Shown here: one piece after another, positions 13,108-17,779 of the stretch
Position numbering within the stretch: position 1 is the first letter of the stretch
How the letters are laid out: the number at the start of each line of letters is the position of its first letter
Assembly: GCA_025934915.1 (NCBI GenBank)
Contig: JAICWG010000003.1
Coordinates: 885-64,884 of the forward strand
DNA from: Nitrospira sp.
GTDB taxonomy: Bacteria > Nitrospirota > Nitrospiria > Nitrospirales > Nitrospiraceae
Length of the DNA: 64,000 nucleotides
Direction: 5' to 3'
Made by a program: the position numbers and the translations under genes
The notes under the pieces: generated by a model
Told to the model about the DNA's origin: nothing
Database searches by the model: none
Seen by the model: the letters and a program-made list of their open reading frames with translations, nothing else

Positions 13108-13671
13108 ATGAGCAACTCCATGCGCCGAATTGTGGCCGCAACCGCGGTGCTAGGTGTTATGACGGTCAGCACTGGATGTTACGGCCCGTTTAATCTCACG
13201 AAGAACGTCTATCACTGGAACAGCAACGTCAAAGGCAGTGGTGAAGTGAACAATAAATGGATGAGGGAAATCATATTTTTTGGCATGTTTATCATACCGG
13301 TGTATGAATTTTCGCTCCTGTTGGATACCTTCATTTTCAACTCGATTCATTTTTGGACCGGGGATAGCCCGATCAAATCTTCCGACCTACATAACGACGG
13401 TACGAAAGTGCTCACTCTCGGAGAGATCACCCTCCGATGGACTTCTTTCAAAGATGGTGCAACTGTGACCTATGAACGCGATGGTGTTGTTGAGCGCCGT
13501 GCCACGATCGTGGCTAGTGCGACGGGCTATCGCCTCGTTGATGAGAACGGCAGTGTTTTGTCAGAAGCAGAGTACGGAACCGACGGTAGTGTGATTCTTC
13601 TCGATAGTGATTGTCGAGTAGTCAATCGATGGAGCAAGGAGCAACTGCAATCCGTCGCTCAGCGACAATAG
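13108..13671 (+). CDS. DUF3332-family lipoprotein
   Basis: Lipobox STGC-YGPFNLT; IPVYEFSLLLDTFIFNSIHFWTG. GGAGG RBS. Confidence 0.8.
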   Translation: MSNSMRRIVAATAVLGVMTVSTGCYGPFNLTKNVYHWNSNVKGSGEVNNKWMREIIFFGMFIIPVYEFSLLLDTFIFNSIHFWTGDSPIKSSDLHNDGTKVLTLGEITLRWTSFKDGATVTYERDGVVERRATIVASATGYRLVDENGSVLSEAEYGTDGSVILLDSDCRVVNRWSKEQLQSVAQRQ

Positions 13672-13748
13672 CTCCATGTCCGGCGAAGTGGCGGTCTTGA
13701 AGAGGGTGTAAGGATGTTGCAAGGATTTGTGGAACCGGCCGTTGCGGG

Positions 13749-14432
13749 TCAAAACCGTAGTCCTGCACCCACCAATCCATAGTGTGTACGAAAATCGATG
13801 GCCAGTCCCTCCCAGTGATAGTCGGAGGAAAGATACCGGTACTCGCCGAACAGAAAGATCGCAACAGTTTGCTGCGTATTGAACAGTCGAACGTGAGGGT
13901 TAAGAACCACTTGCACTCCGCCGAGAAATTGATGGGTAAAGGCGCGGGCTGTGTCAAAATCCTTATCATCTCGCCCCGCAATGTTTGGGTTCAGGAGCGT
14001 ACCATGAGACCAACCGATGCCGGCTCCGATGTACGGACGGATCCTTTCCCCCGGATAGCGTAGGATTAGGTTGAACGTCGTATTGATGATGAGCAGATCG
14101 GAGCGGCCCGTCTCATTGTTCCGTCCATTCGCGATGTTGGGAAAGGAAAGCGCTGCGCCGTGCATATTGGAATCCATCTCAAGGCCGACCATTCGACGTA
14201 GCGCGGAAGGAAAGAGTCCGACCTTAAACCCGGCGCCGAATCCCTCTTGAATCGAAGCGGCAACCGTCGTTCCTTGGTTGAAAATATCCTGATCACGAGG
14301 CCAACTGCCCAGCGCATACGCGCTCAATTCCACGTCGCCGAATTCGCCCGCTCTCGCCACATCACGTAAACACAGGCAGCAGAGCAGCAGAGTGGACGGA
14401 ATGATCAGGCGTGTGAGGGAGGCAAGTCCCAC
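13749..14432 (-). CDS. Outer-membrane beta-barrel protein
   Basis: Signal peptide, RPYIGAGIGW, C-terminal GAGLRF. Confidence 0.8.
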   Translation of the reverse strand: MGLASLTRLIIPSTLLLCCLCLRDVARAGEFGDVELSAYALGSWPRDQDIFNQGTTVAASIQEGFGAGFKVGLFPSALRRMVGLEMDSNMHGAALSFPNIANGRNNETGRSDLLIINTTFNLILRYPGERIRPYIGAGIGWSHGTLLNPNIAGRDDKDFDTARAFTHQFLGGVQVVLNPHVRLFNTQQTVAIFLFGEYRYLSSDYHWEGLAIDFRTHYGLVGAGLRF

Positions 14433-14460
14433 GGTTCCACAAGGGAATGAAGGCGGGGAA

Positions 14461-14499
14461 TGAAAGGGCCCTCCGGAAGTTGCTCCGGAGGCCCTTTCA
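14461..14499 (-). terminator. Intrinsic terminator-like hairpin after the TRL gene
   Basis: TGAAAGGGCCCTCCGGA-agttgc-TCCGGAGGCCCTTTCA. Confidence 0.65.
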
Positions 14500-14518
14500 C
14501 AGCTTGTGCTAGAGGGGA

Positions 14519-15207: not shown

Positions 15208-15308
15208 CAAACTTTTTATAAACATCGAGAGTGAGTTTGGTTATACTTCGTCTCAGTGCTTTTGCAGTAGCGATGGGTGCTTAACTAATTTCTAACGGAG
15301 GAGGACTT

Positions 15309-15815
15309 ATGTCGAAGAAAGTGCTCTTATTGTCTATCGCCGTACTGTTTGGCAGCCACGCTGGTCTGGCAATGGCAGCAAATCCGGACACTGGTCCTGG
15401 TTGTGGCCTGGGGAAAATGGTCTGGGCGGATTACAAGGGTCAGAAGGAAATTCTTCCCCAGGTCTTGATGGTAACAACCAACGGTACTGGTATGAATACA
15501 TTTGCAATCAGCACCGGCACCTCCGGCTGTACCAATGACGGAAAAATTATGAGCGAGCACAAGGCGACGACGTTCGCATCCTTGAATTTCGAAGCGCTGT
15601 CTGCAGAGATGGCTCAAGGGCAGGGAGAACACTTGGCCTCGCTCGCCTCCCTTCTTGGCGTTCCGGCAGAACACCAGGGCGCGTTCTTTACCATGACTCA
15701 GGAACGGTATACGTCGCTGGTTCAAGCTGGGGAAGCGTCTCCGGTGGCATTGGTGAAGTCCCTCAATGATGCCATCGCAGGCCATCCGGTCCTCGCGCAA
15801 GCATCGGTACGCTAA
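15309..15815 (+). CDS. DUF3015-family exported protein
   Basis: Signal peptide; GPGCGLG, TSGCT, MAQGQGEHLASLA. GGAGG RBS. Confidence 0.85.
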   Translation: MSKKVLLLSIAVLFGSHAGLAMAANPDTGPGCGLGKMVWADYKGQKEILPQVLMVTTNGTGMNTFAISTGTSGCTNDGKIMSEHKATTFASLNFEALSAEMAQGQGEHLASLASLLGVPAEHQGAFFTMTQERYTSLVQAGEASPVALVKSLNDAIAGHPVLAQASVR

Positions 15816-15824
15816 GTCATCAAG

Positions 15825-15862
15825 AGGGCCTTGGCAGAGATGTCAGGGCCCTTGTTGTCTCT
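15825..15862 (+). terminator. Hairpin with GAGA tetraloop between DUF3015 and DUF4105 genes (terminator or attenuator)
   Basis: AGGGCCTTGGCA-GAGA-TGTCAGGGCCCT followed by a T-rich tail. Confidence 0.5.
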
Positions 15863-15871
15863 TGTTACACC

Positions 15872-17779
15872 GTGCTGGTTCTCCTTCTCGCATTTCTAAC
15901 CTGTTTGTTCGCTCCCGTACCTTCCGATGCGCAGCAAACCGATCGCGAGCTGTATCTCAAGCAGCTCATCGACCGGGCCGAGCAGGCCAAGCTTGCGGAG
16001 CAACGTGAGTGGCATCTGTTGTTGCACTACCGAAAGGGGCTCTTCGGAGGATATGAGAGCGAACAGGACGATCCCGGTTTTTTCCTGTCCCCCAGCGGCA
16101 AGACGGATCCGGCTGCCGAGCTCAATGCAACCCTTGCAAAATTTTTTTCTGACGAACTGGTCGGTTCCACTCGACAGCCGGCTCAATGCGCCTTCATCGC
16201 TCGGTATCACTGGCTCAAGGAACAACTGAATTTTGATTCTACCCGTCTCCTGCCCCGTGCCTGCGAACGGTTTCATCGATGGTACGAAGATTTCGAGGTC
16301 CAATCTATCTCGCTGATTTTTCCGTCAGCCTTCCTGAACAACCCGGCCTCTATGTTCGGCCACACGTTGTTTCGCGTCGACCAAAGGGGTCAAACGGAAC
16401 AGACCCGCATCCTTGCCTATACCATCAATTATGCGGCTCAGGTGCCTCCCGATGCCGGCCTCGCTTTTCCCGTGAAGGGCATCTTTGGAATCTATAAGGG
16501 ATACTTTTCGACGATTCCCTATTACCTGAAGGTGCGGGAATATCGAGACATCGAAAACAGGGATATTTGGGAATATCGTTTGAATCTTACCGAAAATCAG
16601 TTACGGCGGTTTTTGATGCATGCGTGGGAGCTGGGGAATGCCTACTTCGACTATTTTTTCTTCAAGGAGAACTGTTCCTACCATCTTATGGCACTGTTGG
16701 ACTATGCCGACCCTAACTTGCATTTAACGGATGAGTTTGTCCTCTGGACTGTTCCAGCCGACACGGTTCGCCTGATTTCATCAAAGCCGGGTTTGGTATC
16801 CGATATTGCCTATCGGCCATCCCGCAGTACAGTGATCAAGCGAAAGCGAGAATCCTTGCCCGCAGCGGAACGAGATCTGGCGCAAAGAATCACGCAAGAC
16901 CCTGAGGCGATTGCTGCTCCGGCATTCACCCAATTGAACCTTCCAAGGCAAGCATTCTTGCTCGATCTCGCTTCAGACTATCTGCGTTACCGGATCGAGA
17001 CGACCGATTCTCCGAAACCAGAATGGAAAGAGCGTAACAAGGCGGTTCTGACTGCTCGCAGCCAGCTTCGAATTCCATCCGAGGAATTCACCGTGCGACC
17101 CTTCGCCAGGCAACCTGAGCTAGGACATAAGACGTCACGAGTGATGATAGGTGGAGGCTGGCGCAATCACGACACATTTGAAGAAGTGAGCGTTCGTGGC
17201 GGTTATCACGATTTGCTCGATCCAGAGGTGGGCTATACACCCGATGCGCAAATTGAAATGGCCTCCATCACAGTCCGTCATTACAATAACGCCGATCAAA
17301 CTCGCGTGGAACGGGCGACGTTGCTGAACCTCCTGTCCCTCTCGCCGATCGACTCTGTCTTTCACGCCCCCTCTTGGAAGCTCAACATTGGGATGAACAC
17401 CATCCGGCATAACGATTGTCAGCTTTGCAGCAACGGCTTCCTCAACGGTGGGATCGGAGGGGCGAAGGAATTTCGGTTGCTCAAGCGAGAAGTCCTATTT
17501 GCCTTCGCCGAAACTGAAGCAAGCGTCAGTAAGGCGTATCACGAGATGTATCGAGTCGGCGGCGGCGGAACGGTCGGGATGTTGGCCGATCTCACCGAAC
17601 GCTGGAAAGTGATGGCGACAGGGACGTACTTGAGATTTCCGTTAGGAGAGAAGTCGGACGACTTTCGGTGGTACGTCGGGTCGCGCTTCACCTTAGCTCA
17701 AAATTGGACGGTCAGGCTGGAGTACAACCATCGCGATCGCGACAACGATGTCTTGTTCAGTGTGCAGGCGTTTTTCTAG
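15872..17779 (+). CDS. DUF4105 / Lnb-like Cys-His enzyme domain with putative C-terminal outer-membrane beta-barrel
   Basis: SMFGHTLFRVD (His), YREY..ENRDIWEY.LNL, YFDYFFFKENCSY (Cys). C-terminal amphipathic strands ending in FF. Confidence 0.8.
   Translation: MLVLLLAFLTCLFAPVPSDAQQTDRELYLKQLIDRAEQAKLAEQREWHLLLHYRKGLFGGYESEQDDPGFFLSPSGKTDPAAELNATLAKFFSDELVGSTRQPAQCAFIARYHWLKEQLNFDSTRLLPRACERFHRWYEDFEVQSISLIFPSAFLNNPASMFGHTLFRVDQRGQTEQTRILAYTINYAAQVPPDAGLAFPVKGIFGIYKGYFSTIPYYLKVREYRDIENRDIWEYRLNLTENQLRRFLMHAWELGNAYFDYFFFKENCSYHLMALLDYADPNLHLTDEFVLWTVPADTVRLISSKPGLVSDIAYRPSRSTVIKRKRESLPAAERDLAQRITQDPEAIAAPAFTQLNLPRQAFLLDLASDYLRYRIETTDSPKPEWKERNKAVLTARSQLRIPSEEFTVRPFARQPELGHKTSRVMIGGGWRNHDTFEEVSVRGGYHDLLDPEVGYTPDAQIEMASITVRHYNNADQTRVERATLLNLLSLSPIDSVFHAPSWKLNIGMNTIRHNDCQLCSNGFLNGGIGGAKEFRLLKREVLFAFAETEASVSKAYHEMYRVGGGGTVGMLADLTERWKVMATGTYLRFPLGEKSDDFRWYVGSRFTLAQNWTVRLEYNHRDRDNDVLFSVQAFF

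Follow-up and report, generated by a model that had tools for sequence, protein, structure and literature searches.

A two-gene module of DUF3015 and an Lnb-type Cys-His protein with a predicted outer-membrane barrel in Nitrospira

The known lipid enzymes of the bacterial outer membrane, PagP, PagL, LpxR, and OMPLA, work on the outer leaflet through active sites situated in the barrel. Among proteins of the permuted NlpC/P60 group, residue C148 of Lnb is essential for lipoprotein N-acylation in Bacteroides (PMC11573676), and the DUF4105 clade has as its sister Tox-Act1, a toxin that targets lipids and requires both its His and its Cys (PMC12994826). Tox-Act1 and the LRAT-like enzymes have been described as lipid-targeting acyl enzymes (PMC12994826). 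Here, we analyze a locus of Nitrospira sp. located in a stretch of 64,000 nucleotides, hereafter the window (assembly GCA_025934915.1, contig JAICWG010000003.1, positions 885 to 64,884), where a 635-residue protein combines an Lnb-type Cys-His domain with a predicted 12-stranded outer-membrane barrel, and is encoded directly downstream of a DUF3015 protein. Pfam models all three domains of the 635-residue protein, and the database names are "DUF4105 domain-containing" and "Lnb N-terminal periplasmic domain-containing". Our literature search returned no paper on the barrel form, on DUF7840, on DUF7843, or on the DUF3015 pairing, and the only mention of DUF3015 that it found is a Leptospira expression table. 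The module comprises the following features, given as positions of the window:

15309..15815, + strand: DUF3015 protein, 168 residues (Pfam, 148.6 bits), type-I signal peptide, obligate partner of the enzyme gene
15824..15853, + strand: GC-rich hairpin with a 13-bp stem, in the gap that separates the DUF3015 stop codon from the enzyme gene start
15872..17779, + strand: 635-residue enzyme-barrel protein, GTG start, with DUF7843 (86 bits), Lnb_N (192 bits), a helical linker, and DUF7840 (180 bits)
15989..16225, + strand: DUF7843 domain, residues 40-118 (Pfam), specific to the barrel-type family and including C106
16271..16783, + strand: Lnb_N (formerly DUF4105) catalytic domain (Pfam, 192 bits), permuted NlpC/P60 fold, with H164, C268, and the candidate N186
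17138..17779, + strand: predicted 12-stranded β-barrel, residues 423-635, DUF7840 (DSSP of the model and structure matches), C-terminus QAFF

An Lnb-type domain and its predicted barrel

Pfam analysis of the 635-residue protein reports DUF7843, Lnb_N (residues 134-304), and DUF7840 (residues 413-625), all above the gathering score and in this order, which is the same in all listed homologues and Atlas clusters. A family search of 1.84 billion representatives returns 3044 clusters (50% identity) at E < 1e-30, nearly all of them 600-700 residues long and matching end to end. The NCBIfam model of Lnb (NF051878) gives a weak match in which residues 160-269 align with profile positions 44-148, and H164 and C268 therefore fall at about the positions of Lnb H49 and C148. 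In an alignment of 66 diverse homologues, which share 33-67% identity with the query, no variation occurs at G163, H164, N267, or C268, and the position of N186, a candidate third catalytic residue, is occupied by N, S, T, or D. The residues C106 and C131, each present in 65 out of 66 homologues, may form a disulfide. Eighty loci with relatives were also fetched (51 from Nitrospirota, 29 from other phyla), among them those of Nitrosospira sp. Nsp1 (L065), Nitrospina sp. 32_T5 (L073), and Nitrospira sp. BLG_1 (L011), and annotated with profiles derived from the window's proteins; the GH[TS] and NC[SA] motifs are kept in 73/73 full-length copies from these loci.

A previous reading of this DNA, made without database searches (the sequence-only reading), had recognized the FGH and YxFFxxNC motifs of Lnb and had proposed that the protein ends in amphipathic β-strands and a terminal Phe, as an outer-membrane barrel does, in place of membrane helices. 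The first motif is indeed found at 16355-16363 (H164 codon 16361-16363) and the second, as YFFFKENC, at 16652-16675 (C268 codon 16673-16675), and the predicted structure supports an Lnb-like Cys-His domain carried by an outer-membrane barrel and not by inner-membrane helices. In this model, calculated by AlphaFold2 on the family alignment (mean predicted local distance difference test score, pLDDT, of 94.1; predicted template-modelling score of 0.90), residues 142-321 match permuted NlpC/P60 proteins, namely TseH (6v98; Z 9.3, root-mean-square deviation 4.0, 151 residues), YiiX (Z 7.9), and 3kw0 (Z 7.7). DSSP assigns 12 β-strands with pLDDT > 90 to residues 423-634, the chain ending in QAFF, and residues 418-635 match solved 12-stranded outer-membrane barrels, with Tsx (Z 14.6), EstA (14.1), NanC (13.9), and KdgM (13.6) ahead of the weaker matches LpxR (11.5) and OMPLA (9.5). 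Foldseek reports FapF, NanC, KdgM, and autotransporter β-domains for the barrel. An aromatic residue closes the chain in 53 out of 66 homologues (46 F, 4 Y, and 3 W) and in 69/73 of the copies from the fetched loci.

The comparison with Lnb itself reveals shared and divergent features. Both proteins possess the same family domain (192 bits here), the same dyad (H164/C268 here, H49/C148 in Lnb), and a polar third residue (N186 here, N66 in Lnb), and the Nitrospira protein is predicted to be exported and membrane-anchored, as Lnb is. However, Lnb has five inner-membrane helices where a 12-stranded outer-membrane barrel is predicted here, and the Nitrospira protein has an additional N-terminal DUF7843, an obligate DUF3015 neighbor, and a genome in which Lnt is already present. 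An identity as Lnb orthologue was rejected, the equivalog model NF051878 scoring 15.5 bits against a cut-off of 550. A housekeeping lipoprotein N-acyltransferase was rejected as well, because a canonical Lnt gene, scoring 337.5 bits and thereby passing its cut-off, is present in the genome; the 4.47-Mb assembly contains a single Lnb_N gene. The same fold and the same His-Cys dyad are found in Tox-Act1, TseH, and LRAT, as well as in YiiX (PMC12994826; PDB 6v98, 2if6), but those are soluble enzymes or secreted toxins, whereas the protein analyzed here is a predicted resident of the outer membrane, devoid of any secretion-system or immunity context. EstA, OMPLA, and LpxR are lipid-active enzymes with a 12-stranded outer-membrane barrel, and the Nitrospira protein would resemble them in both respects if it is lipid-active. 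In OMPLA and LpxR, however, the active sites lie in the barrel and face the outer leaflet, whereas here a separate Cys-His domain apparently sits at the periplasmic rim.

Outer-membrane barrels have their C-terminus in the periplasm, and the sides of the loops and turns were assigned on this basis. Following the strand order of the model, the outside loops would be short (2-7 residues), and two long conserved turns, residues 445-458 and 490-500, would be periplasmic. The linker residue H419 is invariant, and R423, R442, H446, S489, S501, and W502 are near-invariant; every conserved barrel residue falls within a long turn, at the predicted periplasmic end of one of strands 1-6, or in the stretch of linker that immediately precedes strand 1. 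Conservation at 17126-17380 (residues 419-502), the predicted periplasmic rim, is unusually strong for a barrel. As judged from the model, these residues could form a headgroup-binding or second functional site, or a docking surface for the enzyme domain.

At the other end of the protein, the N-terminus is hydrophobic with a cleavage-like site between SDA and QQ, and has no positive n-region when read from the GTG. The combination of a GTG start, no Shine-Dalgarno sequence, and a putative signal peptide without positive n-region (MLVLLLAFLTCLFAPVPSDA followed by QQ) occurs at 15872-15934 of the window and in L011, L012, and L013. The three closest relatives likewise lack a positive n-region, whereas signal peptides of the usual kind are found in homologues that are more distant. 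Upstream of the GTG, the reading frame stays open over 34 codons that include no canonical start, and database gene calls differ (624, 635, and about 670 residues).

DUF3015, the hairpin, and a frequent third gene

The DUF3015 gene is found directly upstream of the barrel gene and on the same strand in 45/51 Nitrospirota loci and in 28/29 loci from other phyla (73/80 together); in the window, the two genes are separated by 56 nucleotides that include the hairpin. At the scale of genomes, DUF7840 scores above cut-off in 46 out of 151 Nitrospirota genomes and DUF3015 is present in the same 46, including 18/18 sampled genomes of the window's family, the Nitrospiraceae. Among 251 Pseudomonadota genomes, DUF7840 is present in 29 and DUF3015 in 24, all inside the 29, and DUF3015 is absent from all 222 genomes without DUF7840. 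These counts come from related genomes that are not independent, and the pattern is near all-or-none in two phyla. One Nitrospiraceae contig carries two tandem DUF3015 and barrel-enzyme modules (L031 4206-9761). The partnership with DUF3015 suggested by the sequence-only reading is thus borne out by both adjacency and co-occurrence, and DUF3015, which it had described as a Cys-pair protein, has two invariant Cys, C32 and C74.

The N-terminal half of DUF3015 is conserved and Gly/Cys-rich, with GCGxG, TTNG, and GTSGC motifs. In the model, residues 80-165 form a helical bundle (pLDDT > 90) and residues 16-79 score below 50; comparison with 48,161 chains yields a best Z of 5.9 and no fold assignment. 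A confident bundle next to a conserved but unmodelled half is characteristic of a segment that acquires its fold on a partner. The genome encodes four distant DUF3015 paralogues (45-58 bits; L007 1339-1824(+), L008 1462-1923(-), L009 1189-1851(+), and L010 1366-1830(+)), in all of which a lipobox precedes a linker that is rich in Ser and Thr and contains an FTSSTTPG-like motif, the Gly/Cys-rich half being absent. Lipoprotein forms of DUF3015 also occur directly upstream of a barrel enzyme at two Desulfobacterota-type loci, L051 1853-2275(+) and L071 7473-7907(+). These possess a lipobox, a Ser-rich linker, no GCGxG, and the same helical domain, and the adjacent enzyme keeps its His and Cys. 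The lipobox forms lack precisely the Gly/Cys half and its two Cys. Because both the paralogues and the L051 and L071 proteins carry the helical domain behind a lipobox and without this half, the sequences suggest that the Gly/Cys half may do the tethering job performed by the lipid anchor in the other forms.

The hairpin at 15824-15853 has a minimum free energy of -27.2 kcal/mol (z -2.9). The equivalent hairpin across 72 loci has a median of -29 kcal/mol, compared with -15.8 kcal/mol in control windows, and z < -2 in 79% of them. Its stems vary in sequence between taxa: the structure is conserved and the sequence is not. A strong ribosome-binding site (GGAGGAGG) precedes DUF3015, and the enzyme gene starts at a GTG without one. 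Together with the hairpin after the DUF3015 stop codon, these signals suggest that DUF3015 is made in large excess over the enzyme. The hairpin is probably a partial terminator or an mRNA 3' stabilizer that would set DUF3015 expression far above that of the enzyme. An Rfam scan of 12900-19400 returned no match, and four runs labelled "transcriptomic" yielded at the locus only scattered, low-depth, DNA-like contigs that are uninformative on expression or operon structure.

An α/β hydrolase gene is frequently associated with the module. It lies directly downstream of the enzyme gene in 16/26 non-Nitrospirota loci and within 8 kb of it in 30/51 Nitrospirota loci. An all-against-all clustering of neighboring open reading frames (ORFs) identified no further recurrent gene outside Nitrospirota. 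Neither this third gene nor the hairpin, which was found in the present analysis, figured in the sequence-only reading. In the window, the hydrolase and the gene pair that precedes it are the following:

17841-18343, following the enzyme gene and preceding the hydrolase: hicB and hicA, a toxin-antitoxin pair (matches to Pfam HicB_lk_antitox and HicA_toxin)
18432..19193, + strand: α/β hydrolase, 253 residues (Pfam Hydrolase_4/Abhydrolase_1), no signal peptide here

The window hydrolase is 35% identical (E 1e-44) to the lipoprotein copy of locus L057. A lipobox is present in at least 17/19 hydrolase copies outside Nitrospiraceae, including that of L059, from another Nitrospirota lineage. The Nitrospiraceae copies, as established by comparing L011-L050 with L056-L089, start just past the lipobox position (MSILDQFF...) and have no signal peptide, and the gene no longer abuts the enzyme gene. 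The Nitrospiraceae hydrolase may have lost its coupling to the module or may have taken on another role in the cytoplasm. The intervening hicBA pair looks like a recent insertion, since none of the 80 related loci yielded a homologue; a soil-metagenome contig (run X1, 17353-18203) spans the hicBA junction.

A proposed acyl chemistry and competing explanations

The 635-residue protein is best read as a periplasm-facing, outer-membrane-anchored enzyme that would catalyze acyl transfer or acyl hydrolysis, with DUF3015 as its substrate or adaptor. With a probability of roughly 55%, we consider that the functional unit is the two-gene module formed by DUF3015 and the barrel enzyme, and not a five-gene cluster, and that it operates as follows. 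DUF3015 would be a small exported protein, probably made in excess. The C-terminal 12-stranded barrel would anchor the N-terminal Lnb-type Cys-His domain at the periplasmic side of the outer membrane, where H164 would activate C268 and the latter would accept, as a thioester, a fatty acyl chain from a glycerophospholipid of the inner leaflet. The acyl chain would then be passed either to water, as in a phospholipase, or to an acceptor, as in an acyltransferase. DUF3015 would serve as the dedicated substrate or adaptor, and, in other phyla, removal or recycling of the acyl chain that is left would fall to the lipoprotein serine hydrolase of the adjacent downstream gene. We propose the acyl-thioester chemistry on C268, modelled on Lnb, LRAT, and Tox-Act1, because the characterized permuted NlpC/P60 relatives act on lipids, and the Hydrolase_4/Abhydrolase_1 neighbor is counted in favor of a lipid chemistry. 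The strict dependence of DUF3015 on the enzyme gene, together with its probable excess, points to a substrate or a stoichiometric adaptor rather than to a catalytic subunit.

Several points weigh against this scheme. TseH, the nearest solved fold, is described as a cell-wall hydrolase, and a peptide chemistry is thus possible. An N-terminal enzyme followed by a C-terminal 12-stranded barrel is also the layout of autotransporters, as exemplified by the EstA match (Z 14.1). How the enzyme domain is oriented, whether the pore is filled, and how far C268 lies from the membrane are putative readings of the secondary-structure string of the model and of conservation. In DUF3015, the model has low confidence over the conserved N-terminal half, and the structural matches of the helical half, at a best Z of 5.9, are uninformative. 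Lastly, the Nitrospiraceae hydrolase lacks a signal peptide and therefore cannot share the compartment of the enzyme in this family.

A more specific version of the chemistry holds that the enzyme would transfer an acyl chain of an outer-membrane phospholipid to the conserved Gly/Cys-rich N-terminal segment of DUF3015, producing at the outer membrane a lipid-anchored protein without Lgt, Lsp, or Lol. It is considered because the lipobox forms, i.e., the four paralogues and the L051 and L071 proteins, lack the Gly/Cys half, and it seems unlikely.

The barrel matches might also be taken to indicate an export-and-processing machine, in which a FapF-like channel and a Cys-His peptidase would process DUF3015 and export it to the cell surface. 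Chains of FapF, the amyloid secretion channel of Pseudomonas (PDB 5o65), are the top Foldseek matches (E 1.5e-5), 12-stranded barrels are often translocators, and the superfamily of NlpC/P60 and papain-like proteins includes many peptidases (PMC10318531). The FapF system also has a small abundant exported protein in its operon, and DUF3015, whose own abundance is suggested by its strong ribosome-binding site and by the hairpin after its stop codon, resembles such a substrate; its N-terminal half is Gly/Ser/Thr-rich, with pLDDT < 50, and is probably unfolded. However, the template-modelling scores with FapF reach no more than 0.39-0.49, which is low, and a comparison made by VIA gives equal or higher scores for other 12-stranded barrels. 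No amyloid-repeat substrate is present, and an enzyme domain is fused to the barrel, contrary to FapF. The C-terminal half of DUF3015 is modelled as a well-folded helical bundle, the DUF3015 paralogues look like lipoproteins of the ordinary type, the barrel has minimal loops on its outside, and the characterized permuted NlpC/P60 relatives Lnb and Tox-Act1 act on lipids (PMC12994826, PMC11573676). Such a machine is therefore rather improbable.

Regarding the side of the membrane on which the enzyme domain lies, the order of the parts, N-terminal enzyme and C-terminal barrel, would equally fit an autotransporter-like surface enzyme of the EstA type, whose enzyme domain is passed through its own barrel and acts on the cell surface. 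The β-domains of EstA, NalP, AIDA-I, BrkA, Hbp, and EspP match the barrel with Z 8.5-14.1. Yet EstA shows its passenger outside via a pore helix, whereas the autotransporter alignments start here at residue 418-421, none extending upstream, so that no pore helix is matched, and residues 400-422, the 23 residues that precede strand 1, are coil in the model. A near-invariant Cys pair such as that of the enzyme part is unusual for autotransporter passengers. The conserved residues are located at the periplasmic rim, and the partners of the enzyme carry only Sec or lipoprotein signals. The short outside loops, the position of the conserved residues, the Cys pair, the signals of the partners, and the end of the alignments at residue 418 together favor an enzyme domain docked under the barrel on the periplasmic side, as far as the secondary-structure string and conservation indicate, and an enzyme exposed at the cell surface has a low probability.

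Lineage-specific neighbors and significance of the module

The region 13108-17779, according to the ORF list and translations, holds five genes for exported proteins in three transcription units: DUF3332 on the + strand, TRL followed by a small putative outer-membrane protein (OMP) on the - strand, and DUF3015 followed by the 635-residue protein on the + strand. The three genes outside the module are the following:

13108..13671, + strand: DUF3332 lipoprotein, 187 residues (Pfam DUF3332, 98.9 bits), lipobox STGC, sole copy in the genome, neighbor in one genus only
13749..14432, - strand: small putative OMP, 227 residues (OMP_b-brl, 22.2 bits, under the 28.7 cut-off), signal peptide, C-terminus LRF, downstream of TRL in a common transcription unit, lineage-specific neighbor
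14519..14842, - strand: TRL-family lipoprotein, 107 residues (Pfam TRL, 92.1 bits), lipobox LSGC, sole copy in the genome, lineage-specific neighbor

All five ORFs are located where the sequence-only reading had placed them, and Pfam supports their assignments, the match of the small OMP being weak; that reading had assembled them into one system. Its expectation of a conserved linkage holds for DUF3015 and fails for TRL, the small OMP, and DUF3332, whose association with the module is confined to Nitrospiraceae or to a single genus. A wider system, in which TRL and DUF3332 would be the lipoproteins modified or cleaved by the enzyme and the small OMP would also take part, is suggested by the location of the genome's only TRL, DUF3332, and Lnb_N genes within 5 kb of each other, and by the TRL-OMP pair staying beside the module in Nitrospiraceae through three arrangements; TRL lies within 4 kb of the barrel gene in 10/11 TRL-bearing genomes of this family. 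However, 8/18 sampled Nitrospiraceae genomes have the module without TRL, and in nine other Nitrospirota genomes the TRL and barrel families are both present and unlinked, on different contigs or 92 kb apart. Two families devoid of DUF7840 carry TRL (f13, 19/27; f20, 3/3), and DUF3332, found near the module only in the window's genus, is present in 22/27 genomes of f13. In the 29 loci from other phyla, TRL, the small OMP, and DUF3332 are all absent. Within Nitrospiraceae, synteny is just as strong for the flanking genes of an M48 peptidase and a phosphoesterase, and local synteny alone accounts for the linkage. Since these flanking genes are as syntenic as the three neighbors, and the linkage of TRL, the small OMP, and DUF3332 is lineage-bound, inherited gene order is enough to explain the five-gene cluster, and a wider system is very unlikely.

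Further observations concern these neighbors. The small OMP, which goes with TRL only in Nitrospiraceae, is paired with it in 18 Nitrospirota loci; no homologue was detected beside TRL in 12 regions of other Nitrospirota families, several of which have a second TRL-like lipoprotein gene in tandem. A PDB sequence search with the small OMP, and one with the family profile of the barrel protein, returned nothing meaningful. In a Nitrospirota family without DUF7840, DUF3332 is encoded directly upstream of TRL (G060:C20:18313-19128; L103 2969-3835), and these two lipoprotein families may be connected with each other irrespective of the enzyme. A literature search on TRL, Lsa14, and DUF3332 returned nothing usable. 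Upstream of DUF3332, at 12293-13011, two overlapping ORFs of 75 and 164 residues have a toxin-antitoxin-like arrangement without Pfam match; their homologues occupy the same place in L012 and are inverted in L054, and they part the module region from the conserved M48 and phosphoesterase genes. About 140 nucleotides upstream of DUF3015, an exact 13-nucleotide direct repeat, TCTATAATCCACC, is present at 15144-15171 in two copies 15 nucleotides apart (0.02 expected by chance), and is followed by a terminator-like hairpin at 15192-15208. The repeat was not found in any related locus and may be a local duplication of a -10-like element.

Genomic context also bears on the reading of the protein as a peptidoglycan hydrolase anchored in the outer membrane, which would trim the cell wall beneath as an amidase or endopeptidase of the NlpC/P60 type, as the TseH fold might allow: it has very little probability, given that the characterized relatives in the permuted group, Lnb and Tox-Act1, act on lipids (PMC12994826, PMC11573676), that no cell-wall genes recur in the neighborhood, and that the recurrent third gene is an esterase-type α/β hydrolase.

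The module would thus combine an Lnb-type enzyme domain with a different membrane anchor and with a dedicated partner. The family of the barrel enzyme is widespread: all Nitrospiraceae genomes of the sample carry it, as does roughly one Pseudomonadota genome out of nine; it is absent from the usual model organisms, which may explain the lack of study. The recently named Lnb domain is not limited to lipoprotein maturation in Bacteroidota. If the proposed scheme is true, a periplasmic Cys-His acyl enzyme hung from a barrel, together with a small exported partner, would constitute a different route of lipid or protein modification at the inner face of the outer membrane.

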